Origin: Octopus vulgaris
Lineage: Eukaryota
NCBI GenBank assembly: GCA_951406725.2
Contig: OX597820.1
Location: 17,608,001 to 17,672,000, forward strand
Direction of reading: 5' to 3'
DNA length: 64,000 bases
Translations under genes and position numbers: made by a program
Notes under the pieces: model-generated
Databases searched by the model: none
Told to the model about the DNA's origin: nothing
Seen by the model: only the letters and a program-made list of their open reading frames with translations
Part shown: in pieces, positions 644 through 54,300 of the stretch
Layout of the letters: every line of letters begins with the position of its first letter
Position numbering within the stretch: position 1 is the stretch's first letter

Positions 644-2476
644 TTAGTATTCCTGGCCCAGGGTGTTTAAACTTGGTCTAAATTTTTTTATGAAATATAG
701 TTCTTTATTTTGGCGTTGTGTGAAGGTTGCGTTGTCACTGAATTTATAGAGCGGGTTAGTTGTAAATTTCGGATTTACATTTCCAGCACATCTATCTATG
801 TGTCCGCTGACCGGTATTTTGCGGTAATCAGGGTTTCTAATTTGTGATTTATGCACCGCCATCCTGTTACGTAAGCTATTTTTTGTATGGCCTATATACT
901 GCCTATTGCAGCCTGCGCATGTTATGACGTAAATTAAGTTTTCTGATGCGCAGGTGAAGTTTGTTCTAATGGTGAACTGGTGGCCTTGTTCCAGTATAAA
1001 TTCTGATCCTTCTTTCAAGATGACACAGATTCCGCAGTTGGGCCTTCCACATTTTCTAACTGCTGGTTTTGTGGTTGATGTTGAGTGCAGTGTAGCTTGG
1101 GTTAAAATCCTTTTCAAGGATTTTGGTTGCCGTTTACTTTTAATGATGGTGTGTGTTTCGAGGATCCGGTTCATCTTTGGGTCTCCCTTTAGTAGGGCTG
1201 TGCTTTGTAGTATGGTGTTGAAGGCCTCATTGTTGAGTGGGTTGTGTGTAGAGATGTAGGGACGGGTTTTTAATTGTTCTTTCTTTTTTGGTTTTGTTTG
1301 TCTCAGGTCTTCTATACTTAATTTAAGTACCCGTTGGATTGCACTGTCTATTAGGGGCTGTGGATAGTTTCTATTTGTGAGTGTGGTTCTAAGTTCCTGG
1401 AGACGTGTGTGTCGGGTGTTTGTGTCTGATATTATGGTGCAAATCCTTCTAGCTAAACAAAAAGGGACATTCATTCTAGTGTGTCGTGGGTGGCATGAAT
1501 CAAAGGGTAGGTACTGTTTAGAGTCTGTCGGTTTATAGTAGATATCTGTCTCTATTTTGTTGCCGGTTTTCTTAATGAGGATGTCTAAAAATGGTAATTC
1601 TTTTTCGTTGTGGTCCATCGTGAATTGTATATTGTCATTTATTCCATTTAATAGAATTTTAAATTCCTCAAGTTTCTCTATGCCTTTGTCCCAGATGATG
1701 AAACAGTCATCGAGGTATATTTTCCAGTTGTTATGGATATAGGTGGCGAAGGTGTTTCCATATTTCTCGAGTGTCATCCGGTATAGTATTTTCTCGAGGT
1801 ATCCCATCACTAGGTTGGCAAAAGATGGTGCAGTACGCGTGCCCATCGCTGTTCCCGATCTTTGCCTGTAGAAATCATTGTCAAAAATAAAATAATTGTT
1901 CTCTAAAATGAATCTAAGTCCTTCTATTATAAGGTCTTTGTTTATGCGAGTTGGGAGTTCAAAGGGGTAGTTATTCAGCCAGAAGGTGATTGCTTCTATT
2001 CCTAGGTTGTGAGGGATGTTAGAATAAAGATTAACTACGTCGAATGATACTAGAAGGGTTTTCTCATTGACTGTTTTAGGGAGGTGGTTGAGCATATCTA
2101 TATCGTCTCTTACGTAGCTTTTGATGTGTTTTAGGAAAGGATTAAGAAGTGTGTCTAAGAAATTGCTGAGGCGGTGAGTTTCACATGCTGGCCCTGCTAT
2201 TATCGGTCTTAGTTTAAGATCATTTGGTGAAGGAATTTTGATGAGTGTGTCGGTGGATGTTTTGCACGTTTCTCTAATGGTTTGGCTTTTGTGTACCTTA
2301 GGGATACCATAGAACAAACTCGATTTGCATTTGAAGTTAGTGATGTATTCATACTCCTTGTTCGTGAGTCCTTCTTGGTATGTGTTGATTAATGTCCTAA
2401 GGTTATGCATTATTTTTTGCTGGTTATACTGTTGGGCCCTTTCATAATACGTTTCATCTCTTAATAGGGATAGCAA
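644..2476 (-). CDS. PLE reverse transcriptase/GIY-YIG endonuclease (N-terminally truncated)
   Basis: Uninterrupted 610 codons with the RT catalytic YLDD and a C-terminal GIY-YIG domain. Confidence 0.9.
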   Translation of the reverse strand: MLSLLRDETYYERAQQYNQQKIMHNLRTLINTYQEGLTNKEYEYITNFKCKSSLFYGIPKVHKSQTIRETCKTSTDTLIKIPSPNDLKLRPIIAGPACETHRLSNFLDTLLNPFLKHIKSYVRDDIDMLNHLPKTVNEKTLLVSFDVVNLYSNIPHNLGIEAITFWLNNYPFELPTRINKDLIIEGLRFILENNYFIFDNDFYRQRSGTAMGTRTAPSFANLVMGYLEKILYRMTLEKYGNTFATYIHNNWKIYLDDCFIIWDKGIEKLEEFKILLNGINDNIQFTMDHNEKELPFLDILIKKTGNKIETDIYYKPTDSKQYLPFDSCHPRHTRMNVPFCLARRICTIISDTNTRHTRLQELRTTLTNRNYPQPLIDSAIQRVLKLSIEDLRQTKPKKKEQLKTRPYISTHNPLNNEAFNTILQSTALLKGDPKMNRILETHTIIKSKRQPKSLKRILTQATLHSTSTTKPAVRKCGRPNCGICVILKEGSEFILEQGHQFTIRTNFTCASENLIYVITCAGCNRQYIGHTKNSLRNRMAVHKSQIRNPDYRKIPVSGHIDRCAGNVNPKFTTNPLYKFSDNATFTQRQNKELYFIKKFRPSLNTLGQEY

Positions 2477-2640
2477 TAATTTTTATAATTGTTTGTATTC
2501 ATTATTACTATCGCGTTGCCCTTATCTGCCTCCTTAATTGTTATTGTTTTGTCTTCTCTTAGTTTGATGAGGTCGTTCCATTCTCTTTTGTTGAAGTTAG
2601 GGCTGTGTTTTTGTTTCTTGATGAATTGAAACGGGAAATT
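644..2640 (-). mobile_element. Penelope-like retroelement (Neptune-like), RT + GIY-YIG, 5' truncated
   Basis: The 610-aa ORF 644..2476 has PLE RT motifs (FYGIPKVHK, LRPII, SFDVVNLYSNIP, GTAMGTRTAPSFANL, YLDD, LPFLDI, YYKPT), a CxxxxCxxC linker (CGRPNCGIC) and GIY-YIG (LIYVITCAGCNRQYIGHT...R...H...E...LN). Upstream, 2477..2610 reads ...TITIKEADKGNAIVIMN (DKG motif) in another frame, so there is one frameshift. The 5' end abuts (TA)n. Confidence 0.95.
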
Positions 2641-3426: not shown

Positions 3427-3587
3427 CACATATTACATGATGGATTTATTCGTAAAATTCTTCCCGGCATGCCCTATACTGCCGTGTAAGTTTTGCGTCT
3501 GCGCAGAGATTTGAAAAGTTAAGATCTGCTAGTAGTCGAGACCAACACATGGTCCTACATCGCTGCAGACCTCGATTCAATTTAGGC

Positions 3588-3663
3588 GACTCGCTGACGA
3601 AGCTAGCCTTAGCAAACATATTCTGTGTTTTGCTAGAAAGAAGCAGAAACCGCGGTTCGAGTT
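3588..3663 (+). ncRNA. Type I hammerhead ribozyme motif
   Basis: Stem I GACTCG/CGAGTT, core CTGACGA, extended stem II (first pair is an A-A mismatch), GAAA, palindromic C-CGCG-G, cleavage triplet GTT. Confidence 0.75.
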
Positions 3664-3766
3664 GTTAAAGTTATCGGTAAACGTTTTTGATTTTCACTCT
3701 CGATAAATTCATCCCCTTTTTGTGTTCCCAGCACTCGGCATCTTAATTTAGGAGCCCTTAATTGTA

Positions 3767-10677: not shown

Positions 10678-11772
10678 TGTTTCTTTATTAGCCACACAGG
10701 GCTGCACACAGATAGAACAAATTACAAGGTAGAGCTTTTCTTTTGAAGGTTTAAAAAAAAAAAAAAAAAAGGAAGGGGGAGTTTCAATCAAAAGGGATCG
10801 TAAAAGGAGAGAAAGAGGACAAAAAAAGGGGGGTTAAAAAAAGGGGGAGAGGAAAAAAAAAAAAAAGTTGATCAATAGGGATCGTTATCACAGAAATGTC
10901 AATATGAAGTGTAAAGGGGAGGACAGGTGAGGTTTACCCGTGGAAAGAAAAGCCTACGGAAAAGACTACGGTAACCTCGGTCAATGAAGTCACATTTTAT
11001 ATTTCTTTTTTTTTTTTTTTTTTTGCAAATAAGCAACTCTCAGTTTTCGATTTCTAGGTTCATAGGACTATGCTCAAGGTGGCTTCGTCATTCATACGTG
11101 CCATTCTTGCTACATTCACCCATCTTTTTTAAAACATTCGCTAGACAAAACTTGCCTCTCTACTCTCACTTTCCTTTTCAAGTGGTACTTGAAGAAGTTG
11201 ATGAGAGATTGACCAGAGAGGAAAGTGTTTGTCTCCAATCCTTTCAGACGCGTCCACCAGATACATTCTTTCGCCATAGCCACAAGGATGATGAAAATAG
11301 CTCTTCCTTCCCTTTGAAGGAGGGAGGCGTGACAATATTAACGATAGACTCAGCTGATAAACCGACTCGTCCCACACGTGACAGCAGTTGTTCGACACAA
11401 GCCCACAGGTCGGAAATTGTTGGACACTGCACGAGTGCGTGCAGAACGGTTTCGTCGCTCTGACCGCATCTCGGGCAGGTCGGCCCCGTGTTTCTCGAGC
11501 CGTGTCTGTAGAGCTTATCCCGAACGGGTAGCGCTTCTCGGTAGCACTGCCAGGCCAGGTATCTCTGGAAGTTGTCCATGGGTCCTGGCCCGAAAGTCGT
11601 CCTGAACAGGCGGGTCAGGTACTCCTCGTCGACGTCCAGGTTCGCCCCGAGCTCGTCGTCGTACCTCCCCTCCACTAAACCCCTATAGAATGCTTTGGTT
11701 GTGTTGAAGTCACTCAAGGTCGACCCAGGACGGCAGAGTTGCTTGAGAGCAACGCGACACTCGCGGTGCCAT
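10677..11772 (-). mobile_element. 5'-truncated L1/Tx1-type LINE (ORF2 C-terminus + 3' UTR) inside (TATC)n
   Basis: zf-RVT-like WQCYREALPVRDKL...CPRCGQSDETVLHALVQCP. ORF2 stop near 11060, T-rich 3' UTR, AATAAA just before the (TATC)n. (GATA)n lies on both sides. Confidence 0.85.
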
Positions 11773-21504: not shown

Positions 21505-21822
21505 GAAAGAATGGAGTTGAACGACGAATTAACAAAATTCCTTTATTTTCGACATATGTTTCGAAGGCTGCATATTCCTAATTTCGAAGGAATAGGGGGT
21601 GCATTATCAGAAACACTCATTATCGCTATGGGCTCCGTGTGGGCAGTCATCTAAAAGTTTTTGTGCATCTTGATGCTGACATAAGTTCTTTGTTTTTCCT
21701 GATGAGAAGGCGGCATAATGCACCCCTTATTCCTTCGAAATTAGGAATATGCAGCCTTCGAAACATATGTCGAAAATAAAGGAATTTTATTAATTCGTCG
21801 TTCAACTCCATTCTTTCATTTA
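21501..21822. repeat. ~105-bp inverted repeat at a (TA)n junction (inverted pLTR stub)
   Basis: 21501..21607 mirrors 21715..21822 with few mismatches. Confidence 0.9.
21694..21776 (+). ncRNA. Type I hammerhead ribozyme, canonical core
   Basis: TTTTC-CTGATGA-GAAGGC(g)GCATA...TATGC(a)GCCTTC-GAAA-C-ATAT-G-TC-GAAAA. Confidence 0.88.
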
Positions 21823-26279: not shown

Positions 26280-27950
26280 TGCGGTCGTGGGTGTTACTGT
26301 TCCGTTCATGTTTTCTATTGAGGCTCTGTGTGTCTACTGCTATGTGTCTAGCCTTTGTGATCTAAGTATCGAGTCAGTTGTAGGTGTCGATAATACCTTA
26401 ACCTCTATACTATTAATCGAGCCTCCATGTTCTGCCTACGCATGCTGGTAGAGCACTGACAAGCTTTTCCCTTCTTTGAGCTCCCGCCAATGTTCACCTA
26501 TGCGCTCTCCTATGTTGTGTGGAGTCTCTTCAATGTACGCAGTTGTCACGTTTCTGTACCGTTCCTCAGTTATATCGTAAGCTATACACTACACTCCTAA
26601 CCTTAGAGTTAACCCGTGAGTTTATTCTACATACAGCACAACTGTACTTTGTACAGAGGGGCTTATCAATGGGATAGGTATTGCAGATCAGAGATTTTAA
26701 TGGGACATCAGGCCTCTCTACTACTTTAATTCGCAGATTAGCCTTACTTAATGTTTTTCTAAAAAGGCATGGTAGTTCGCCGCCAGGGGTAGCATCGACG
26801 AACATGACACTCTGGTATTTTGTGTTGTCATACGAAGTGTTGGCCTTATTTATCTTATTACTGATCCATTCTGTCTTGTTTACTACTGTACAGCGGGTAG
26901 ATCCCCTTAATGCTAGCTCCTTTGTACAATCTAATCCTGTCCCTTAGGTTGTAGGCAGAGAACTTCATGCGGTGGATGATGTGTTGTATGTGTCTTTCGA
27001 ATTCCTTAGGGTCGCACACGCGAGACACATTCCTCATCACTCTCACCAAGTCAGCTACAAGAATGTTGAACTTGGCGGTGTCCACAATCGCTGCGTTCTT
27101 GTGAACAAGATACTTAGAAGCCATGGGTTTGGCATAACAAGAGTGAAGGATCTGCACCTTACCATTTTTCGTTTCTTGCCAGAGTTCAGTGTCTAAAATG
27201 GGTAATCTATCGTTAGGGTGCTTACTAAGGTAGTCTATCCTTATTTCTATACTCTGGTTGATTGACTTAGCTATTTGCTGGATGCTCTCCATAATGTCGG
27301 CTTCTAGATCCTTAACATTGTCTTGTAGGGGTTCTTTGACTACTACGTAGATATCATCCACGTAGCGGTAGTACATGGTAAGATTTATCGAGTTTTCTAC
27401 TAATTTTTCTTTAAGTCTCTTATCCCACCATACCATAAATAGGTTAGCCACATCGCCAGTAATACTGACACCGATGCCTGCACCTTCCTCTTGGGCGTAT
27501 ATCTTGTTATTAAACTTAAATATATGGCCCTTGAGTATGGTCTTGGTAATCACACCCACCACATGTTCGACCATCTTTTTAATCTGATCTTTATTTTCGA
27601 GGAAGCGTATAGCTCTGGTCCACCCGTTCCATCTCTCTATAGGGATCTTCTTGGCCATAGACGTTAGAGTGGCGGTAGGTCTACATTTTATCGATCTAGT
27701 GGGGCAGAACCAACTAAGGTCATGTTTATCTAAATAGCCATTATCGCATGTCTGTCTCAGGAGGAGTCCTAGTTCTTTAGTATCAACACCACGGAACTCC
27801 ACATTGCTCTCGCTGATCACTTCCACACATCTCTAAACAGCAAAATCAACATCAATGGATGGGTATAGGAACACTGCATCCATATTGCCTGTTATGCACC
27901 CCGTTAGATCGTAGTCATGGTTGCACTCATTGACTGCACTCATTGAATAA
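26280..27950 (-). mobile_element. Decayed Penelope-like element of a third lineage (RT + GIY-YIG)
   Basis: NMDAVFLYPSID (upstream of a stop). ORF 26858..27826 has QEEGAGIG...VANLFM...RYVDD...LPILDT...YAKP. Then FVDATPGGEL...IKVVER...CxxxxCxxC...VVYSL, and YIEETPHNIGERIGEH near 26.5 kb. Confidence 0.88.
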
Positions 27951-33077: not shown

Positions 33078-34444
33078 CGAGAGAAAGAGAGAGGTATTAG
33101 TATCCAGAAGCCCCAAAGAGTAACGCTAAGTATGTGCTATGGACAGACCGTAGTGTTAAACTCATGGTTCGAGACGATACGAGTGAGGAGTCTATTGTGG
33201 GTCTTGTATTAGCATGCATATATATATAGATATAATAATTATTATTTGAGGGAATAAAATCCAAACTTACAAGGAAAAAAAATCTCAAATAACTTAGCAA
33301 CGTTCTTTTCTCCTTTTCGTTTGGATTTGTATTTTTCTGTGATTAATGTTTAGCTGAGATTAATTTTGTTATTGATATATTAATAGGTGTCTGTTATTTT
33401 TAGTTGGGTGTTTTCATATTAGTTTCTCCATAAGTTGTGCTTTTCTCAATTTTTTTTTAGTTCATGAGGCTTTAAGGTTTTTCGTTTTTTTGTATTTTTC
33501 ATTGACAAAAATATTTCGCCACGTTCATTGAGTATTTATTCTATTTCTTTGCACTAAGTCTCCAAGCGATAAATTTTATATAAACGCTTTAACTATTTAC
33601 TTTAAAAATCAGTTACCCTTCAATCTTCGCTAAGCTAATTTTGACTCTAAATCGTTTCCCTATCTCATTTGAATATTGAACCGTTGTGTGTTTGAAATTA
33701 TTATTATTGTTGATATTATTATTGTGTGTTGTAATATTATTATTTATTTATAGTTTCTTGATAGTATGTTTTACGTCCGATGTTTGTTATAAAAGATTTT
33801 AACGTCTTACATATTATTTAATTTAATAATTAATATTGTTAGACTATATTTCTTTTAATAATTAGATAATAGTTTCATTAAATAGTATTATTTTTAAATA
33901 AACTAGTTTTTATTTTAATATAAAGTTTATGTTTGTTTAACTTTATTATCGTGTGATATATTAAATCGATAGATATTATACATGGATATTAATATAACGA
34001 GTTTATATAATGGATTTGAGTATATTTGTACTATTTCAAATTTTTTATTGTATTATTCATGAATGGAATCGATTGAGTTGATTAATTAGACGCTTATCAT
34101 TTTAAAATATACATAGATTAACAGAATCGTTGAACTTAGTAATTTAGTTTGCTTATCAATATTAGATAGTTCTTGCTATTATTTTGACTTTGATCGTTGT
34201 TATTATTGTTATTGTTATTGACTGGTTTTGTAGAGGACTGGTGATTGAGATTGTACATCTTCATAGTATATTGTTCTTTGGTTCTAATATTTTTGCACCT
34301 TTCTTTAATTTGAGGTTGATAGGTTTTCTTACTTTCTATTAACATATTATTCTCGCTATTATATCTTTTTATATATTTTTATATATATTGATAGATGATA
34401 GATTTTAGTTACGATAGATATATTAATTATTATATCTCTTATTT

Positions 34445-34483
<39 letters not shown>

Positions 34484-34836
34484 TGGCTTAATGTATTTGT
34501 AATATTAAATTTTAAGTTAATTAGGTATTATATTTTTTGATATTTAGTCAACTTTGTTATAGATTGTTATATTAAATCTATAGATACTACACATGTATAT
34601 TTATTATATGGTTAGCTTATTTAAGGAGTTTGTCTATATTTGAACCATTTCTTATTTTGATTACAATTTAATGACTTGTACTAGCATTGTGTATTTTATT
34701 TTATTTTAAAGTATTTAATTATTTAAGCATTACTTTATTTCTACTTATGTATATTTAGGATTTTCATATATATATATATAAATAAATATTAAAGTATATT
34801 TATAAATTAATTATTTTATTGTTCTAATTTATTTTT

Positions 34837-34923
34837 AACCTGATGAGCGACTATATTTATATCGAAGTGATTTCTCTACTACTATAATCATTTCTTAAAT
34901 ATAGCCACGAAACGCGTGTCGTT
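34837..34923 (+). ncRNA. Type I hammerhead motif with long stem II
   Basis: AAC-CTGATGA-gcgaCTATATTT...AAATATAGccac-GAAA-C-GCGT-G-TC-GTT. Confidence 0.65.
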
Positions 34924-35085
34924 TTTCTACCTATTATATACGTTTTTATTATTATTTTTTGCAATTTACTTAATCTTTGACATTTTATTGTTATTTTAAT
35001 TTAAAGTTTTCTATTATATGTAATTTTCTAGATGGTGTAATTTAATTGTTCATTTTGAATTGATAAAAGGAGTTTTTTTCTAATT

Positions 35086-35149
<64 letters not shown>

Positions 35150-35150
<1 letters not shown>

Positions 35151-35245
35151 TAGACAAAATGAGATAACAAAGCCAAGGGTGTGTGGAGTCTTCAGGACAT
35201 TTAGAAACTCCTCACAGCCTTTGCTTTGTTATCTCATTTTGTCTA

Positions 35246-35246
<1 letters not shown>
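35150..35246. repeat. ~97-bp hairpin between (TG)n and (TA)n
   Basis: ttagacaaaatgagataacaaagc / gctttgttatctcattttgtctaa pair perfectly (24 bp) and extend inward with mismatches. Confidence 0.85.
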
Positions 35247-35302
<56 letters not shown>

Positions 35303-35387
35303 TTAGAGACAAAACCACTATTTTGCAAAACAAACAAGGAAAGACTTAATCAATACATAAAATTTTAATAAAAAGTCAAAAAAACCG

Positions 35388-35430
35388 CCACTACAATTGT
35401 TTCTTGTCCTGATCGACAATCTTCAGGTGG
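35388..35430 (-). ncRNA. Minimal type I hammerhead (inverted pLTR copy)
   Basis: Exact reverse complement of 36470..36512. Confidence 0.9.
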
Positions 35431-36469
35431 ACTTCCAATCTAAAATATAAATATTTTAAAATATAAAAATAATAATTTTAAAATAATTAAAGTATTAATG
35501 AAAAAAAATATAAATATATAATCTATATATAACCTATATATAATCCATATATAATCAATATATAAACAATATATAAACTAAAATAAACCTATCAACAATT
35601 AAATATAAAATATAAAATATAAAACAAAACAAAAAATAAACTATATATACACCCATACACATATAACTAATTATATATAACCATATCTAAATACATACAC
35701 TAAATCACACACCTATATATATATCCCTATACATACACATAAAAACGTCTAGGCAACGATAAATAAATAAAATAGCCAAATACTTCAACACAATACTTAT
35801 TCATACTCCCTCACACACACATACAACCCACATTCCCGCTCTAGAAACGGACATCATTTAAAATTATGAATGGAGAAATGGAACAAATGGAATTAAAAAT
35901 TATATTCACTTGGTAAAACGAACATTACTCAAAAATTATGAATGAAATAATGTAACAAAACAACAGACATCGCAAATAGACACAAATTACTACGAATTCC
36001 TTAATAAAACCACCATGACAAACCAAAACTCACAAAAACATATAATGATAAAATCTCCCTTTACTAAACTCTATAACATACCTATATAGCAATCCCCCTA
36101 ACCTAAACATTCACACACAAATACACACACGTAAACCACACACCCACAACACATACAAATACCCACCCCACTCACACATACCTATACATACATATAAACC
36201 TCAACATATACTCCAAAAACCCACTCAACCCCACACAGACAAATAAACACATACATCCCCAAACCTATATAGCAAACCCATAAACACATTCACACACAAA
36301 TATACATACGTAAAACACACACCATATACATATACATACTCACTAAACTCGATATATACAACAATATTAACACACCCACACTCATACAGATAAACAAATT
36401 ATACAACCAAAATACGCACACACTCACACATTTTTATATTTTAAAATATTGATATTTTAGATTGGAAGT

Positions 36470-36512
36470 CCACCTGAAGATTGTCGATCAGGACAAGAAA
36501 CAATTGTAGTGG
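36470..36512 (+). ncRNA. Minimal type I hammerhead (5' pLTR)
   Basis: CCAC-CTGAAGA-TTGTC gatcag GACAA-GAAA-C-AATT-G-TA-GTGG. Predicted cleavage after 36508. Confidence 0.92.
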
Positions 36513-36746
36513 CGGTTTTTTTGACTTTTTATTAAAATTTTATGTATTGATTAAGTCTTTCCTTGTTTGTTTTGCAAAATAGTGGTTTTGTCTCTAATAA
36601 TATTATATAATATTTTACTATAAAATTGGATTTAATCCTAAATCTGATTTTTCCCTGTAAATTTGGATTTATTCCCTAATATTTATTATTTTTATTTAAT
36701 ATTGATAATTTTGTATATTGAGTGTAATACCTCAATTTCGTAAATT

Positions 36747-39266
36747 ATGGATTTTACAGGTAAGATAGAACCGCTGTTTTGGGATTCATCTTTGAAAGAT
36801 ATTCCTATTCCTTCTAGAAAGGAATTTATCTTGAAACTTGTTAATAATGTTAAAGATTTTATTTCTAGAATTAAATGGAAAGCTTTTTACTATAATTTTT
36901 ATTTATTTAATGATATTGATAGTAGGAATGATAATTTTACCTCTAAATTTAAATCTAGAAAGGAACCTCCATTTAATAAAGAATTACAATTACTTGAAGA
37001 TAGTATATGGAAGGTGGTAAAAATATTGAATTCCATAAATACCCAAATAGAAATAATGAATATTTAAGGAACTTAGCAATTAAAATTAAAGATATGAGAA
37101 ATATGGATGGTATTATAGTACAATCTGATAAAACAAGGAACCTATATAAATTAGATGTTAAATTATATGATAAACTATTAGGGAAAGAAATAATTAAAAA
37201 ATATAAAATTGTTCCAGATGATATTCTTTATAATATTAATAAGGCCTCTAAATTAGTAATGTTAAAATATGAGTTGGATAATAAAACTGAACCTTATGTA
37301 CCTTTGCACCCCAGAATTACTCTTAAAGACCATAAAGATAATTTTTATTCAGACCCTAAAGTTAGATTAATTTGCCCATGTAAATCGGACCTAGGTAAAT
37401 TAAGTAAATTTATTTTAGATAAATATATCGATAAGTTAAATAAACTTAATTATTTAAAATTATGGTTTAGTAATAACAATACATTGAAATGGTTTAATAA
37501 TATTAAAGATAAAAATCGTTATAAATTTATTCAAATATATATAGATAATTATTATTCTTCTATTAATGAAATTGTGTTTAATAAAGCGCTTATTTTCGCA
37601 ATGAATAAAGTGGGTATGTCACGGGAAGAAGTTAATGTAATTAAAATGGCTAGGAAATCGCTAATTAAATATAAAAATAAATTATGGGCTAGGAATGATA
37701 CTAGAGATTGTTTTGATATACCTATGGGAGCACCAGATTCTGCACAGGCTACTGATTTAGTAGGTATTTTTCTTTTATCTGAACTCCAATTAGAAAATCT
37801 TAAGATAGAGGGTGGCTTATATAGAGACGATCTTCTACTAGTTACAAAGAATTGTACTAATAGGAATCTAGAAGTATATAAGAAAAAACTATATAGTTTC
37901 TTTAAAAGATATGGTTTAAGTATTACTATATATAAGGAGAATTATAATGTTAATTATTTAGATGTTAATTTTAATCTTATTACTGGTAAAACACAACCAT
38001 ATCATAAATTTAATGAGAACCTTAGATATATAAATGTTAATAGTAATCACCCATTTTCTATTAAAAAATCGTTGATTAATAATATAAGTAAACGTATTTC
38101 ATTACTCTCTTATGATATAGAGATTTTTAATAAACATGCTAATTATTATAATGAGGCCCTTAGAGGGGCAGGTTATAATAGGAATATTAAATTTTATAAT
38201 ATTAGTGATAAAGATTTAAATGATAATTTTCGAGATACTTCTAATAATAATTATAATTTTGTTAGGTTTAGTGGTAAAAATAATAGATATTATAAAAAAA
38301 ATAATAAAAATGATAAAAAATATAAATAAGAATAATAATAATAATAATAAAAATAATAATAATAATAATACAAATAAGAATAATAAAAATAAAAATAAAT
38401 TTAATAATTATTATAATAATTATATTGATAAAATTAATAATATTAATAATTCCTTAAATGCTGTACACAGATATAATTCTGATAATAATTTTAATAAAAT
38501 AAAGAATTATAAATATATTTATAATAATGATAATAATAATAAGGTTAATAAGAATAAAATTTGGTTAATAGTTCCTTATGGAGATCAAGTAAAAACGAAT
38601 ATTATTAAAGAGATTTTAGATGTTATAGAACTATTTATTAGAGATAATCGTAAATATAGAAACATTTTCTCTATTAATAATTTTGGAGTAGGTTATTCTA
38701 CCACTAATAATGTAGGTAACATTATTTCTTCATTTAATAAATATAAACTGAATAATTTTTATAAAAAGAAATTATTTGATAATAATATTAATAATGATAA
38801 GACTTATATTAATTGTACATGTAGAGATAAATCTAATTGTATGTTAAATAATAATTGTGATATTAACGATGTAGTGTATAAATGTATAGTTACATTACAT
38901 GATAATAACTTTAAGAATAATAATTACCCAAAAGCGGTTTATATAGGTTCTACTTCCTCAAAAATAAAATTAAGAATCGCACAACATATGAATTCTTTTA
39001 AAAATAAAAACTTAATCAACTCAACCGGACTTAGTAAGTACATTTGGAGTCTTAAATCACTAAATATTAATTATAGTTTAATTTGGGAAATAATTTGTAA
39101 AACTAAATCATATACTATAGGAGCTAATTGTTGTTATTTATGCTCTAATGAGTTTAAAGAAATTTTATTTTATAAGTATGATAATTTACTTAATACTGGT
39201 GAAGAGCGCAAAATAAAATGCAGACATAAGTTACTTTACCTATATAATAAGTTTCATGATAAATAG
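36747..39266 (+). CDS. Naiad-type PLE polyprotein (RT, Asn-rich insert, CxCx4Cx4C linker, GIY-YIG), broken by two frameshifts
   Basis: SLKDIPIPS...RIKWKA, SDKTRNLYK, ITLKDHK...RLICPCKSDLG, FDIPMGAPDSA...LVG, GLYRDD, NYLDVNFNL, SNHP, CTCRDKSNCMLNNNC, VVYK...YIGST...R...H, CYLC, KCRH. The frameshifts lie in A-rich runs (~37020 and ~38300). The first RT Asp motif reads QIYIDNYY, so that Asp may be lost. Confidence 0.88.
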
Positions 39267-40689
39267 CATTAATAGTTCCCTATTAGGTTACTTTAGTTTA
39301 GTTTAAATTAGTTTAGATAATTATATTTATTTGGTTATGTAGTCTAGGCTTTAATTATAGTTAGTCTTTATTGATATTTCTTTGTTTTAATTAGTTCATT
39401 TTTAATGTATATTAATATAACAGTTTATGGTACGTTAAAACTTTAATAATTTTTATTAGATTTTTTTATTTTCTTTAATTATATATATTTTTTTTAAAAT
39501 TTTATTTTATTATGTATTTTTATTATGCATTTGTTATATGTATATTGGAGGATATATTTATATGGATGATGGGTGTTATTTAGTGGTGTATATATTGAGT
39601 TTTGTATGTATGTGTGAATGTTTACGATCCCTTTGTTTTTTATTTGGTATGTTGAATTGACAGATTTTATTTGGGTATTGTCTGTTATAATAAAGTACAC
39701 ACACCCATAACAAATACAAGTGCCCACCTCATTCGCGCGTACCTGGAATTACGTATGAGCCTCAACATATGCACCAAGGGACCACTCCCACCCACACGGA
39801 CAAATAAACACATACATCCCCAAAAATGGGCGTAATCCCACTCACACCAATCATACATGTATACAATTACACACACAAGAACAATACATAACTAACCCAA
39901 ATATACAGAACATACCACAAATCACCAACATACCACCATCACAAATGAAACCCACACCCATACAATGACAAAACTCCCCCCTCCATACCCAATTACACCC
40001 ACATAGCAATCCCCATATATTCATCCATACACAAACACACATACGCAAAATACACACACACAACACATACGTACAACCCCCCCAAACACACTCATATACA
40101 TACGTATCAAACTCGACATCCACAACAATACGCTCACACCCATTCACACCCAGATGAACAAACTACACAACCAAAAAACGCACACACACACACGTGTGCG
40201 TATTTTAATTGTGCAATTCACCCATCCGCATGAATGCGGGCGCGAACACACCGTTGCACATATTGAGCCCAACAAGCATGCACATGTACATGTGAGGGGG
40301 TACACGCACATGCCGTGCGCGTATACCCCCCGCACTTATACCCGTGCGTGAATATACACATGGAGACTACCACACAGGTACAAACGTGCATAGCAAAGGG
40401 AGCCCCATCACTACACTCAATGCATACTATTACCCATCCGCACGGATGTGGAAGCGAATCACCGGTGCATATGTTGAGGCTCATGCGTAGCACTATGGAG
40501 GCGAACGTCATTGGAATTATGAGTGGAATAAGTGGAATTGGGAATTGTAACCGGGTGGTGGGCTAGCGTTGCTTAGAGTTGGGAATGGATTAATGTAGTA
40601 GAATAGCAGATATCGAGGATAGACGTAGATTGCTACGAATTGTTTATTAGGACTACCAGGATAAACTAAGGCTCATAAATACATATAAT

Positions 40690-42900
40690 AATTTATCATG
40701 GTAGTTTTATTAAAGAATCCATTCATAATTTTTTTGAGTAGTGTTGGTTTGCCGCGTGAATATAGTTTTTAATTCCATTTATTCTATTTCTCCATTCATA
40801 ATTTTTAAATGGCGTTTGCTTCCGTAGCGCGTATTCTTTTTATACATAAGTTATGTTCCTATGGCAACGTAATTTTGGTTTGATTTTTTTAACGGCTTAG
40901 AATTTAATTTCACTTCATAATTTGAAACTGACTTGAAAGTATGTATATTATTTGTCCTTATGTCATATTGTTATTTTTGATATTCTGGTTAATTACGATG
41001 TATTTTATATATCGTTTTATGTGTAATAATGTTGTTTTTCTTTGGAGTGTTTATGTATGTGAGATTGTGTGTGAGTGTGTGCGTATTTTAGTTGTATAAT
41101 TTATTTATCTGTATGAGTGTGGGTGTGTAAATATTGTTGTATATATCGAGTTTAGTGAGTATGTATATGCGTATATGTGAGGGAGTATATGTATATGTTG
41201 TGTGTGTGTGTTTTACGTATGTATATTTGTGTGTGAATGTGTATATGGGTTTGTTATATAGGTTTGGGGATGTATGTGTTAATTTCTCTGTGTGGGGAGG
41301 GAGTGGGTTTTTGGTGTATATTGAGGTTTATACGTTAGTATAGGTATGTGTGAGTGAGGTGGGTATTTGTATAAGTCGTGGGTCTGTGGTTTACGTGTGT
41401 GTATGTGTGTGAATGTTTAGGTTAGGGGGATTGCTATATAGGTTTGTTATAGAGTTTAGCAAAGGGAGATTTTATCATTATATGTTTTTATGAGTTTTGG
41501 TTTGTCATGGTGGTTTTATTAAGGAATTCGTAGTAATTTGTCTATTTACGATGTTTGTTGTTTTATTGCATTTTTTCATTCATAATTTTTGAGTGGTGTT
41601 CGTTTTACCACGTGAATATTATTTTTAGTTCCATTTATTCCATTTCTCCATTCATAATTTTAAAAGATGTTCGTTTTCCAGAGCGGGAATACTTTTTATA
41701 AATATGTTAGGTTCCTTGGTAACGTAATTTTATGTGGTGTATATGTTGAGGCTTATATGTACTTGTGGGTGTGTGTGAGTGGGGTGGGTGTTTGTATTTG
41801 TTATGGGTGTGTGGTTTACGTGTGTGTATTTGTGTGTGAATGTATAGGTTAAAGGGATTGCTATATAAGTATGTTATAGGGTTTAGTAAAGGGAGGTTTT
41901 ATCATTTATGTTTTTATGAGTTTTAATTTATCATGGTAGTTTTATTAAAGAATCCATTCATAATTTTTTTAAATAATGTTAGTTTACCGCGTGAATATAA
42001 TTTTTAATTCCATTTATTCTATTTCTCCATTCATAATTTTAAATGACGTTTGCTTCCATGGCGCGTATTCTTTTTATACATAAGTTATGTTCCTATGGTA
42101 ACGTAATTTTGGTTTGATGTTTTTAACGGCTTAGAATTTAATTTCACTTCATAATTTGAAACTGACTTGAAAGTATGTATATTATTTCTCCTTATGTCAT
42201 ATTGTTATTTTTGATATTCTGGTTACTTACGATGTATTTTATATATCGTATTATGTGTAATAATGTTGTTTTTCTTTGGAGTGTTTATGTATGTGGGATT
42301 GTGTGTGAGTGTGTGCGTATTTTGGTTGTATAATTTGTTTATCTGTATGAGTGTGGGTGTGTTAATATTGTTGTATATATCGAGTTTAGTGAGTATGTAT
42401 ATGTATATGGTGTGTGTTTTACGTATGTATATTTGTGTGTGAATGTGTTTATGGGTTTGCTATATAGGTTTGGGGATGTATGTGTTTATTTGTCTGTGTG
42501 GGGTTTAGTGGGTTTTTGGAGTATATGTTGAGGTTTATATGTATGTATAGGTATGTGTGAGTGAGGTGGATATTTGTATGTGTCGTGGGTGTGTGGTTTA
42601 CGTGTGTGTATTTGTGTGTGAATGTTTAGGTTAGGGGGATTGCTATATAGGTATGTTATAGAGTTTAGTAAAGGGAGATTTTATCATTATATGTTTTTGT
42701 GAGTTTTGGTTTGTCATGGTGGTTTTATTAAGGAATTCGTGGTAATTTGTGTCTATTTGCGATGTCTGTTGTTTTGTTACATTATTTCATTCATAATTTT
42801 TGAGTAATGTTCGTTTTACCAAGTGAATATAATTTTTAATTCCATTTGTTCCATTTCTCCATTAATAATTTTAAATGATGTCCGTTTCTAGAGCGGGAAT
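40690..42900 (+). repeat. Nested tandem repeats in the Naiad 3' region (~1.2 kb period)
   Basis: 40690..41700 recurs at 41925..42900. The sub-unit tcatggt.gttttattaa.gaat...tttctccatt.ataattttaaa occurs at ~40696, 41505, 41931 and 42715. Confidence 0.85.
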
Positions 42901-43301
42901 GTGGGTTGTATGTGTGTGTGAGGGAGTATGAATAAGTATTGTGTTGAAGTATTTGGCTATTTTATTTATTTATCGTTGCCTAGACGTTTTTATGTGTATG
43001 TATAGGGATATATATATAGGTGTGTGATTTAGTGTATGTATTTAGATATGGTTATATATAATTAGTTATATGTGTATGGGTGTATATATAGTTTATTTTT
43101 TGTTTTGTTTTATATTTTATATTTTATATTTAATTGTTGATAGGTTTATTTTAGTTTATATATTGTTTATATATTGATTATATATGGATTATATATAGGT
43201 TATATATAGATTATATATTTATATTTTTTTTCATTAATACTTTAATTATTTTAAAATTATTATTTTTATATTTTAAAATATTTATATTTTAGATTGGAAG
43301 T

Positions 43302-43344
43302 CCACCTGAAGATTGTCGATCAGGACAAGAAACAATTGTAGTGG
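43302..43344 (+). ncRNA. Minimal type I hammerhead (3' pLTR)
   Basis: Identical to 36470..36512. Predicted cleavage after 43340. Confidence 0.92.
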
Positions 43345-43571
43345 CGGTTTTTTTGACATTTTATTAAAATTTTAATGTATTGATTAAGTCTTTCCTTGTT
43401 TGTTTTGCAAAATAGTGGTTTTGTCTCTAATAATATTATATAATATTTTACTATAAAATTGGATTTAATCCTAAATCTGATTTTTCCCTGTAAATTTGGA
43501 TTTATTCCCTAATATTTATTATATATATATATATATATATACGCGTGTGTATGTGTTCGTGTGTATGTATA

Positions 43572-43619
<48 letters not shown>

Positions 43620-44233
43620 GAGAATGTGTTAACCTCTTGAAGAAATGGTTTCATCCAAAAAATGCTGGTTCAATACCTAGTATTTTGGGAAATGAATTTC
43701 ATTAGTTAAGAAAAAGTTTGTAAGGAAGAGAACTATATTAGCAGAGTTACAGCTTCAAAGGGTTTAAACAAATTCTTCAGTGTGAAGCACATCTTTATTT
43801 TCAACAGGTATTAATGCTTATATTATATTATGTTGCATCATATTATATTATGTTATATTATGTAATATAGTTATACTATTCCATAATTTAATTGCATATT
43901 TATCAAATACTTAAATTTAGAGAACACATATTTTCCCACATGAACACAAGATAAATTTTCTCTTTTCGTAAGTTAAGTAGGGCATTCCTAGAAGTAAGTG
44001 TTTTTAAGGCTTCTGTGATGCATAAATTGCATTTCTTGTTATTAATTTTATAAGTCATTGCCTCAGCAATAATATCCCACTTAATTTCAATTTCAATGTT
44101 ATTATCCTATTATCCTTCAATTCCAAAATAAATTTTACTTAATGCGGTGGACTTGATTTTTTTTTTTTTTTTGCTTATTTTTAAAAGATTGGGGATTATT
44201 AACTTCCCAATCTCCATTTTGTTTTTCTTTTAA

Positions 44234-51301: not shown

Positions 51302-54300
51302 ATTTTTATCTAGTTTCAGCTCACAAGCTGTGGCCATGCTGGGGCACCGCCACTTGGTGTTGCTACATGGTTTTACTTCACGAATGCTTTTTAGCAATTA
51401 CCATTTGGTGCATGAGAGAGTTCGATGCAGCTGCCCTCATCTGCACCTCCTGCCGTGAAGTTGGTTCATCTGGGACACCTGACAAGAAGAGATCCAGTTT
51501 TATTTTAAAGACATCTGCGTCCACCCCATGCAGGTCTCTTAGGTTCTTCGGGAGGATATTGAAGAGCTGTGGGCCTTGGAAGCCCAGGCTATCACAGTAT
51601 CTTGTCCTACATCTTGATGGCAAATTTGGAGTCCTTGGCACTATGCAGTGGCGCCCAGTTCTGGCATTTGTATAACTCTCGATGCCAAAGTTTGGGACAA
51701 GTCCTTCTAGGATCTTCCAGATGTATATATTATGGCATATCTTTCTCGCCTACGCTCTAAGGAATAGAGTCTCAATCTCTTGAGTCTTTCCCAATAGCTT
51801 ATATGCTGCACAGAGGCTATCTTCTTCGTGTAGCTTCGTTGGATCGCCTCAAGTTCTGTGATTAACTTGACACTGGATGGTGACCATAGCTGAGAGCAAT
51901 AGTCAAAGTGGCTTAGGACAAGTGTCCTCCAGAGGACCATCATGGTTTCCTGGTCTCTAGTTCTAAAGGTTCTAAGAATCCATCCGGTCATCCGCCTACA
52001 TTTCATTGCCAATTTAGCAACATGCACATGAAAGGTTGCATCATCACTCATGTAAATACCCAGGTCTCGCACTGATTGTGCCTCTGGGATTGCAATCCCT
52101 CTAGGTCCAGTGTATTTATTGGGTATTTGCATTTAGTTTTGCATGCTGATAGCATAAGGCTTGAAACGTTTCAGCATTGAACTGCATGCTATTCTTTTCA
52201 GCCCACTTGTATATTTTGTCCAGCTCACATTGCAGGTGCTTAGTGTCTTCAGGGTTCTGTATTGCCAGTGAAACTTTTGTATCATCTGCATAACTTGTGA
52301 TCGTGGCTCTCTGCGTGGCTGAGGGCATGTCTGAGAGGGACATTATGAACAGTAGTGGTCCCAAAACAGTGCCTTGCGGAACACCGCTCACTATTTGCGT
52401 GTTAATGGAAGTGGCTACTACCACCTGACTTCTATCCTTCAGAAAGTCATGAAGCCATTCTCCTAATTTTCCAACTATGCCAAGATCACGCAGTTTGTGA
52501 CATATCATTCCATGATCAACTTTATCAAAGGCTTTTGCAAAGTCGAGATATATGACTTCCACATTTGAGTGGTTGAGCAGTTGTTTCAGCACCCAGTCAT
52601 AGTGTTGTAGGAGCTGAGTTAAGCAGCTTCTTCCTGGTCGGAAACCATGTTGGGTGTCAGGCAGCAAGTCATTTTCTTCAAGGAAGGTGATTAGTTTCCT
52701 TCTGACTATTCGTTCCATGACCTTGCTGATGTGTGAGGTCAGAGAGATAGGTCTGTAGTTCTTGGCTTCCGCTCTGCTACCTCCTTTATGAATAGGGCAC
52801 CTTTTACCTTCCTTCAGTTTACTTGGAAGTTTCAAATCGCCTAAACAAACAAATTGAAAGCAGTGAAAAGTTCCGCCTGAAAATAAAACTGTTGGAAGTT
52901 GAAAAAGAATAGCATACCCTATTGATTTCACTACCCTAGCAGTGTGCGTCCTTTTCGAGAGGCCTATCCTCAGTGAAAATTCTAATGAGACGGCGTACTT
53001 TTCACTGATTTCAATTTGTTTGTTTAGGCGATTTGAAACTTTTGTACGCCGTCTCATTAGAATTTTCCTCTCTCTGGGGATTTTGCTCTTGTGTACAGTG
53101 GCCTTTCTCTCTGGGACACATTTGTAGTATATGGCTTGCATTACAGACATGAATTGTTGAAGTTTCATGTCGATGTCTGGCGAGGAGAGACATTCAGGCC
53201 AGTTTTGTTTGAGGATCTCTTTCTCAATTTGTTTACAGTTTGCCTTATGGAAGTTCTAGCTGGAAAGATTCTGAGAGTTTCTTGTAGGCTGCATGTCCAT
53301 GCTTTCCTTTGGCCCGTACATGGTCAGCTCTACCATGTTGTGATCCGAAAGTAGTGTCGGTGTCACTTTCACATTATGGATGAGATCCATATTATTTGTG
53401 AAGCAGAGATCCAGTATGTTACCTGCCCTGGTTGGTTGGAGTATTACTTGCTCCATGTACAGAGTGTTGATGAGGTTCAGGAGGGACCTCGCCTGTCCTC
53501 GTTCACATCGTGTCATTCCTGGGAGAGAAAGGTCCTCGGGCCATCTGACATTGGGTAGATTGAAGTCTCCCATAAGAAGTACACTTATGTGTTGTTCTAA
53601 TATGACTAGAACTTCTTCTATTCTTATAAGGCAGTCTTCAAACTTGCCTACATGGCTTGGGGCATCTGGAGGGCGATATGTAGCACATATAACTACACCA
53701 AGTTACCTTATATGTACAATTAGTGTGTCACACACCGAATTTGAGTATGACAAAAGGACCGGGTGTGAGGTCCTCACGGATGTACATAGCAACTCCTCCA
53801 TGACTCCTTTCTTTTCTGTCAGTCCGTAGTACAACATACTGTGGTATGTGTATTTCCGCATCTGCTATGTCCAGTTTCAGGTGTGTTTCCGTAAGTGCTA
53901 TGCATAAGGCTTGATTGCATGCAACAAAGTCTCTCAAGAACGGGATTTTTGTCCTGTTACTGAGTGTTAGCAGTCCTCTGATGTTCAGTAGGAGCATCGA
54001 GGTGATGTGTATGCTGTTGCCGGCGGTGTCGACCTTGGGTCTATTTGCTGTGGTGGTCTTGTGTATTGTGGATAGTCCCATCTGAGAGTTTGAGTTTGAT
54101 GGAGCCAGGTTAGCTGCTGTACAATCTTTTGTGCCATGCACAAAAAAGATTCTTGTTCAGCAGCTGCCCTTTCAATAACATGTTGGCGGTTTGTAGCACG
54201 CACCACATCTGCGTACCTCCGTTTTGGGGCAGGTGGTGCGTGGTCCATTCCTTTTCCTTTTGGTAGTTGGTTTCTGACCTGTTTCATGTTTATGTGGCAG

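Follow-up and report, generated by a model that had tools for sequence, protein, structure and literature searches.

A hammerhead-bearing Penelope-like element in Octopus vulgaris

The window analysed here is the whole 64,000-nt stretch of Octopus vulgaris contig OX597820.1 (assembly GCA_951406725.2, forward-strand positions 17,608,001 to 17,672,000), and all coordinates below count from its first letter. Between two (TA)n tracts it holds a Penelope-like element (PLE) in which an inverted copy of the 3' end, a pseudo-long terminal repeat (pLTR), a region coding for a reverse transcriptase (RT) and a GIY-YIG endonuclease (EN), about 4 kb of non-coding sequence and a second pLTR follow one another (Table 1). 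From its sequence, we consider this to be probably a broken, likely young PLE of the Hydra clade that was swollen by the 4 kb of repeats, and in which one-way changes in two hairpins represent ADAR edits that were written into DNA.

The inverted copy is truncated at its 5' side and corresponds to 42302-43442, from which it differs by seven substitutions and one indel across 1,140 columns; together with the 5' pLTR it forms a head-to-head junction with a 1-nt overlap. The tail of the 3' pLTR (43443-43522) is absent from the inverted copy. The direct pLTRs are spaced 6,832 nt apart and differ by two substitutions and one indel in 259 columns. Using the rate implied in PMC13282606, at which a Jukes-Cantor distance of 0.09 equals 25 million years, and assuming an octopus host, the insertion would be about 1 million years old or younger. 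A preliminary description of this DNA had proposed a young PLE with hammerhead ribozymes in its pLTRs, laid out with (TA)n tracts, an inverted copy and direct pLTRs; the coordinates and identities obtained here confirm the kind of element and its layout, and the near-identity of the repeats is in keeping with its youth.

Table 1. Features of the element and its flanks (window positions).
Feature	Position	Strand	Remarks
5' (TA)n target microsatellite	35248..35290		no definable target-site duplication
Inverted, 5'-truncated copy of the 3' end	35291..36430	-	99.3% identity to 42302-43442
Antisense hammerhead copy	35388..35430	-	
5' pLTR	36430..36689	+	260 nt, including 80-nt tail 36610-36689 with 19-nt subrepeat
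Minimal type I hammerhead, first sense copy	36470..36512	+	predicted cleavage after GUA at 36508
Hydra-type RT and C-terminal GIY-YIG coding region	36747..39266	+	~839 codons, broken
Motif SLKDIPIP	36789	+	
Motif RIKWKA	36867	+	aligns with RxRWKA of homologues; Lys variant
First frame break	37019..37023	+	A5 run
Motif DKT	37127	+	
RT motif A	37535	+	reads IYIDNYY; Tyr at codon 37538
Motif MGAPDSAQ	37724	+	
Motif GLYRDD	37814	+	
Asn-rich low-complexity insertion	38220..38555	+	RT thumb to linker; approximate limits
Linker CTCRDKSNC	38814	+	CxCX5C
VVYKC..YIGST	38871-38954	+	GIY and YIG equivalents
CYLC	39132	+	CxxC
CRH	39219	+	CxH
AT-rich start of 3' non-coding region	39267..39697	+	
Old inverted piece of 3' repeats	39698..39824	-	A>G excess on +
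Hairpin HP1	39974..40402		arms 39974-40185 and 40194-40402
Hairpin HP2	40490..40830		arms 40490-40603 and 40705-40830; inverted piece continues to 40692
Older direct duplicate of 41924-42900	40689..41690	+	52 substitutions in 971 columns
G/T-rich imperfect direct repeats and terminal AT-rich stretch	41312..43261	+	units ~200-430 nt, 75-88% alike
3' pLTR	43262..43522	+	261 nt, including tail 43443-43522
Second sense hammerhead	43302..43344	+	predicted cleavage after 43340; 6,832 nt from first
3' (TA)n microsatellite flank	43520..43615		interrupted

Motifs place the element in the Hydra clade

In the classification of Craig et al. 2021 (PMC8557442), Hydra proteins carry a C-terminal EN, RWK in place of GxKF/Y, DKT, a divergent RT4(B), a CxCX5C linker, and CxxC and CxH around the E and N positions, and lack CCHH; the elements have hammerheads in their pLTRs, target (TA)n and are generally shorter than 3 kb. 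Naiad proteins are described there as having an N-terminal GIY-YIG, DKA, CCHH, CX2-5CxxC and usually an IFD, and no canonical hammerhead. The single open reading frame (ORF) of the octopus element has its GIY-YIG domain after the RT, RWK-like, DKT, CxCX5C, CxxC and CxH motifs, and Hydra-type RT motifs A, B and C with a divergent RT4(B), and the element combines a canonical hammerhead in the pLTR with insertion into (TA)n. CCHH is absent, with only one Cys between the GIY and YIG equivalents of the EN, as are DKA, CX2-5CxxC and, given that there is no insertion relative to Hydra rows, the IFD. Only the length of the unit between the sense cleavage sites, 6,832 nt, falls outside the Hydra description, in which size is not diagnostic.

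Among 171 homologues of 640-1000 residues, an RWK-like motif was found in 140, DKT or DKS in all 171, CxCX5C in 159 and LYRDD in 167. In the supplement of PMC8557442, 15 of 15 LYRDD matches are Hydra rows, Naiad motif C not being visible in the part consulted, and an N-terminal S-x-KNIP occurs in Hydra-1_Obim, Hydra-1_Ajap and Hydra-1_Crog. A profile built from 120 homologues scored 417 bits for the RT of the element versus 37.5 for a canonical PLE at 644-2482 of the window. A quick tree of 39 rows placed the RT in a six-row clade that includes an Argonauta hians protein (Shimodaira-Hasegawa-like approximate likelihood ratio test, 99); unnamed Hydra-motif proteins grouped with the element, while two canonical PLE RTs stood apart on very long branches. 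Against this placement, the tree was built without named references for Naiad or Hydra, and the composition of the window row is unusual. The preliminary description had instead assigned the element to Naiad, citing SLKxIPIP, GLYRDD and CxC. Naiad does resemble it in targeting (TA)n, in having an inverted 5' copy and in a motif containing CxC, and octopus Naiads exist (PMC8557442), yet the domain order, DKT, the missing CCHH and IFD, the canonical hammerheads and RT motifs A, B and C all contradict or disfavour this assignment, to which we give next to no credence; the three cited motifs are Hydra motifs. Taken together, these features place the element in the Hydra clade with near certainty.

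The closest relatives form a subclade of P0121, P0122, P0003, P0002 and the A. hians protein P0004 (GAB1599935.1), which have 40-49% RT identity to the element and share LICP (3/5) and SAQ/SAE variants of motif B, several also having a low-complexity insertion after the thumb. GAB1599935.1 is named 'GATA zinc finger domain-containing protein 14-like' and is a Hydra-type RT. Fourteen Hydra-type loci (L079-L092) lie in contigs titled as bacterial genomes or metagenome-assembled genomes and are probably animal contamination, and viral contigs yielded no relatives from 101 candidates.

The coding region is split over three frame pieces that are colinear with intact homologues. The second frame break lies inside 38220-38329 and offsets the first. 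In addition, the motif-A Asp, which is conserved in 232 of the 233 homologues whose motif A could be recognised (241 proteins examined) and in the PLE rows of Fig. S1 of Craig et al. (PMC8557442), is replaced by Tyr. As assembled, this copy is broken, with three lesions, and the ORF cannot be called near-intact as had been proposed. The R, H, E and N positions of the EN look intact in the alignment, and a predicted structure (predicted local distance difference test score 90.8) had TERT as its top fold match (3du5, E 2e-10), while Pfam and PDB sequence searches recognised neither the RT nor the EN. A programmed frameshift was judged unlikely, as the closest homologues read through both break sites.

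Three identical hammerheads, one of them antisense

Each hammerhead consists of a 4-bp stem I, CUGAAGA, a 5-bp stem II, GAAA and a stem III with the palindrome ACAAUUGU. The three 43-nt copies are identical, and so are the surrounding 66 nt; the identity and the palindrome are as first described, with the qualification that one of the three is in antisense. On shuffled 64-kb windows (100 shuffles) the hammerhead descriptor gave 0.09 matches per window, and 0.01 when stems of at least 4 bp were demanded. An Rfam scan at E<=1 returned 17 matches, all below family thresholds and no hammerhead among them, and the exact 43-nt hammerhead was not found in the metagenome contigs searched.

The computed energy of the monomer fold is -5.5 kcal/mol versus a minimum of -6.6 kcal/mol, and that of the stem III homoduplex is -6.4 kcal/mol. 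This marginal fold agrees with the finding that minimal hammerheads are inactive as monomers and weak as dimers (PMC4209133), and those of the element would presumably cleave only as dimers or with the help of protein. In a transcript reading in from upstream, pairing of the antisense with the sense hammerhead was computed at -80 kcal/mol, and such a transcript would form 1.1 kb of new double-stranded RNA.

A 3' region of 4 kb built from old repeats

The length of the unit is roughly 2.5 times that of even the largest complete Hydra family in PMC8557442, where 14 complete families measure 2,084-2,729 bp and all 27 listed families 1,080-3,045 bp, in agreement with the unusual length noted earlier. 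We compared it with 92 related loci, of which 85 gave 91 C-terminal ends and seven had none. The distance from stop codon to cleavage site is 4,074 nt in the element versus 76-549 nt (median 150) in the 59 of 91 ends with a downstream hammerhead, a set that counts locus L004 with its misplaced stop; the palindromic stem III recurs in 48 of these 59, and 11 of 13 hammerhead-to-hammerhead spans are 2,387-2,847 nt. No downstream hammerhead was found at the other 32 ends, 26 of which had less than 600 nt of contig remaining. Weighing against the comparison, short contigs favour relatives with a short 3' region, many loci are redundant, and six of the 32 ends without a hammerhead had more than 900 nt of room. 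As PLEs are generally put at 4-6 kb, with larger ones known (PMC6431247), the assembled element is a giant for Hydra, not for all PLEs.

The element is mostly of 20-35% G+C, and its 3' region contains no frame longer than 114 codons, which accords with the non-coding repeats of about 4 kb proposed before and led us to reject a second ORF there. The AT-rich start of the region (39267-39697) gave no hammerhead core and no significant homology to the stretch preceding the 3' hammerhead. A lost ancestral pLTR right after the stop codon was not supported, as its score of 42 was reached by 40 of 300 and 88 of 300 shuffles, and a retrozyme array was ruled out by the lack of a hammerhead core in the repeats.

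Of the repeats, 960 nt (42302-43261) recur in the inverted copy and must therefore have been in the template. In the 3,035 nt upstream, 1,829 nt are homologous to the same stretch at 5-30% divergence, which makes these internal pieces, consisting of direct duplicates (40689-41690 versus 41924-42900) and inverted pieces, far older than the insertion. We consider it very likely from these relationships that the whole 3' region was carried in the transposed RNA, which suggests that a PLE with GIY-YIG is able to accommodate 4 kb of non-coding repeat of its own making. It is unlikely, by contrast, that 39698-42301 is specific to this copy, having been joined to a shorter element as a related non-autonomous piece, through a chimeric template or by faulty assembly. 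Our searches turned up no second copy, only one copy of the element was examined, all 59 measurable relatives have short 3' regions, and the two frame breaks, in A-rich runs, could themselves be assembly errors. Nevertheless, the matching pLTRs connect the ORF with this 3' end, the template contained no fewer than 960 nt of repeats, assembly collapse would leave near-identical copies rather than pieces diverged by 5-30%, and the editing marks described below imply passage through RNA. Two sequencing runs contained 0.59 of the sampled words of the unit versus the 0.44 of its length that the ORF and pLTRs account for, which is weak support and gives no linkage.

One-way transitions in the hairpins point to probable ADAR editing

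The two fold-backs in the 3' region carry transitions that run overwhelmingly one way. Comparing the arms of HP1 with each other revealed 14 transversions, and transitions whose G.U pairs lie on the minus strand in 76 cases and on the plus strand in three (p 3e-19), the dominant change reading T>C on the plus strand. In HP2, 29 A>G-type transitions on the plus strand were opposed by two of the other kind, with six transversions (p 5e-7). Comparison with paralogous repeats showed the same: 40194-40363 in the right arm of HP1 had T>C at 43 of 80 T and A>G at 2 of 38 A, whereas 40522-40692 had A>G at 29 of 88 A and T>C at 1 of 37 T, and the old inverted piece at 39698-39824 had A>G at 14 of 58 A and T>C at 1 of 19 T. 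A three-way test, restricted to positions with the same base in two paralogues, showed that of the 39 T>C changes in the right arm of HP1, 36 are private to that arm; by this test, C>T loss in the terminal repeats with an ancestral hairpin arm was rejected. The 1-kb duplicate provides an internal comparison, as A>G had struck 8 of 36 A within the HP2 arm compared with 5 of 184 A elsewhere (p 2e-4); eight of the nine substitutions of the duplicate that fall in the arm are A>G.

Strand-symmetric DNA mutation predicts a ratio of 1:1, from which HP1 and HP2 depart and pooled controls do not: 66 inverted pairs outside the element gave 964:1021 in total. Three of these pairs reached p<0.01, all of them transversion-rich, and the two within the window overlap microsatellites. 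The fold energies follow the same polarity, at -240 kcal/mol on the minus versus -98 kcal/mol on the plus strand for HP1, and -138 kcal/mol on the plus versus -75 kcal/mol on the minus strand for HP2, which in folded RNA would be a long G.U-rich stem. Same-strand changes on both arms of a fold-back are the expected product of deamination of a folded RNA, and their presence in DNA would imply that the edited RNA was reverse transcribed. Exceptional hyper-editing is known in octopus and a depleted 5' G is the expected neighbour signature (PMC5625713), and non-neuronal editing in squid targets repeats (PMC9068888). The sequence pattern makes it likely, and we hold this with good confidence, that ADAR caused the one-way changes.

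Several points weigh against this conclusion. The polarity of the left arm of HP1 is mixed, with ten sites that fit A>G and nine that look like G>A in the right arm, so that not all 76 changes can be polarised as A-to-I. Depletion of a 5' G lies in the expected direction (5 of 15 versus 85 of 165) and is not significant (p 0.14); changed A by 5' neighbour are 43 of 82 for U, 29 of 51 for A and 5 of 15 for G, giving the order U, A > C > G. HP1 further requires an extra inversion or an antisense template, and the limits of the hairpins were chosen after the alignments had been seen.

Selection for RNA structure, in which changes that leave G.U pairs are tolerated and others purged, would also let G.U-compatible changes dominate both hairpins, and the nine HP1 sites that read G>A on the plus strand, equal to C>U on the paired strand, would fit it. 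We regard it as improbable because G>A affects only 8 of 48 G in the right arm of HP1 beside the T>C rate given above, despite the low G+C content; because runs such as TTT>CCC and AAA>GGG occur; and because 14 and 6 transversions have gone unpurged while neighbouring repeats differ by only 5-12%. Selection would also need a function on opposite strands for the two hairpins. There is a similarly small chance that another strand-specific mutator acted, be it RT misincorporation under skewed deoxynucleotide pools or a deaminase on cDNA or an RNA:DNA hybrid. An excess of purine transitions, which counts for the ADAR reading as well, is present in the three direct-repeat alignments too (48 of 591 versus 14 of 638 pyrimidine transitions, p 1e-6), and the 5'-neighbour preference did not reach significance. 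A mutator does not account, however, for the concentration of changes in paired arms, nor for the hits on one and the same strand in both arms, a pattern indicative of a single strand that was folded. Editing of DNA by APOBEC gives G>A on the plus strand (PMC2873906), unlike the pattern seen here.

Under the ADAR interpretation, direct duplications and fold-back inversions would have been added to the 3' region in earlier rounds of transposition, the fold-backs would have formed long double-stranded RNA in whose most heavily edited arms ADAR deaminated some 40-55% of adenosines, after which the RNA with its edits would have been reverse transcribed and inherited. HP2 would have been edited in its present orientation, in sense RNA, and HP1 in the opposite orientation before being inverted, as PLE insertion inverts 3' pieces. 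The RT of the element itself, active in those earlier rounds, may be the nearest candidate for fixing the edits. We somewhat favour the broader view that a giant Hydra-PLE lineage, in an animal that edits heavily, repeatedly built fold-backs into its own RNA and survived their hyper-editing by germ-line ADAR, the edits being written into the chromosome. Ages of 36-56 million years obtained for the inverted pieces were discarded, as editing inflates them.

Insertion and its template

For the present insertion, we propose that the GIY-YIG domain would have cut a (TA)n tract and that both DNA ends would have primed reverse transcription, at sites 80 nt apart (43522 and 43442), giving rise to the tail; one cDNA would have run for 7,093 nt and the other for 1,140 nt before they were joined head to head. 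In the Poseidon element PAc, the two target strands are both cut and extended, and the tail is defined by two internal positions from which reverse transcription begins; the PAc hammerhead depends on protein, and insertion in vitro can do without cleavage (PMC11167929). The long cDNA, exceeding one unit, crosses the cleavage site twice and the short one once, with no scar at any crossing; an excised linear monomer is not sufficient as a template without an exact jump, as all three passes are unscarred. An uncleaved transcript of more than unit length is by a small margin our preferred template; a religated circle, of the kind proposed as an intermediate by Cervera and de la Pena (PMC4209133), is possible though less probable, and a template that needed an exact jump is rather doubtful.

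For the young inverted copy, the end at window position 36430 corresponds to 42302 of the template, and for the old left arm of HP1 the end at 40193 corresponds to the homologous 42303/41069. Although widely separated in time, the two inversions appear to stop at one template site, which suggests a recurrent RT stop or an inversion hot spot.

Comparison with related systems

The closest known systems are Hydra-clade PLEs such as Hydra-1_Obim and Penelope-13_HM (PMC8557442), which have a single ORF with RT then GIY-YIG, the RWK, DKT, LYRDD, CxCX5C, CxxC and CxH motifs without CCHH, a (TA)n target, and a type I hammerhead with a palindromic stem III; Penelope-13_HM also has an inverted 5' copy. 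The octopus element differs from them in its 6.8-kb unit versus 2.1-2.7 kb, its repeat-built 3' region and its Asn-rich insertion, and its 80-nt tail compares with 30-40 nt described for PLEs. Hydra-1_Obim is a different family, with a different hammerhead and protein. The parts of PMC8557442 consulted make no mention of hyper-mutated hairpins.

Poseidon PAc of Anolis, with its two RT start sites, cutting and extension of both strands and AT-rich targets, may serve as a model for the inverted-plus-direct structure, although it belongs to another clade, its hammerhead overlaps the ORF start and its tail is ~30-40 nt (PMC11167929). Terminons and PLE transduction offer oversized PLE units that end in hammerheads and, in a rotifer, a 4-kb cargo mobilised between the terminal repeats of a PLE (PMC6431247); Terminons are EN-deficient, telomeric and multi-ORF, whereas the cargo here is a self-derived non-coding repeat. 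Non-LTR retrozymes have type I hammerheads related to pLTRs (bioRxiv 10.64898/2026.07.22.740005), unlike the 3' repeats of the element, which carry no hammerhead core. In APOBEC-edited retrotransposon copies, the editing mark is likewise fixed in DNA by reverse transcription, but as G>A on cDNA-derived plus strands (PMC2873906), in contrast to A>G confined to fold-back arms and found in both polarities.

Avian retroviral proviruses hypermutated from A to G are known from experimental or somatic isolates, so the principle of editing marks being fixed by reverse transcription is not new. The element, in contrast to these retroviral cases, is of non-LTR type and genomic. Our search, which left most of the subscription literature outside, came upon no account of a long Hydra element or of a PLE in which ADAR-type marks had become fixed.

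Hammerhead-bearing Hydra elements are known and ordinary in themselves. If the hairpin bias is due to ADAR, the element would be a genomic fossil of RNA editing in a lineage that passes its DNA on, and retrotransposition would be a functioning path by which A-to-I edits enter inherited DNA. Scars of both polarities would then document, for the family as a whole, one round of transposition and inversion after another and allow PLE inversion events to be ordered. One-strand G.U asymmetry in fold-back arms would furthermore be a scalable test of A-to-I feedback into animal genomes, and the same test could tell whether editing restricts such elements or is tolerated by them.

Other elements in the window

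Further PLE traces surround the element. An AT-rich stretch bounded by (TA)n at 34482-35081, in which no ORF remnant was detected, contains a decayed Hydra-like hammerhead of another family at 34836-34925 on the plus strand (CTGATGA...GAAACGCGTGTC). At 33235-33279 (minus strand), a 45-nt match of 84% to the tail of the element ends in (TA)n and is likely, by this similarity, the terminus of a related family; the adjoining ~1.2 kb is without ORF similarity. The remnant of another Hydra-type EN C-terminus (E 4e-10) lies at 43957-44175 (minus strand), with a CTGAAGA core near 43780. Directly upstream of the element, between (TG)n and (TA)n, a 97-nt imperfect hairpin at 35150-35246 resembles a miniature inverted-repeat transposable element.

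Farther away, the canonical PLE at 644-2482 (minus strand) is an uninterrupted frame of 612 residues with RT, GIY-YIG and an upstream Cys cluster, which we take to be Neptune-like, and 26858-27832 (minus strand) encodes a PLE-type RT fragment of 324 residues (YVDD). Hammerhead-descriptor matches at 3585-3666 and 21694-21776, both on the plus strand, have long stem II regions and are unrelated in sequence to those of the element. Judged by their motifs, 52116-53255 and 11244-11771, both on the minus strand, are presumably pieces of non-LTR retrotransposon ORF2.

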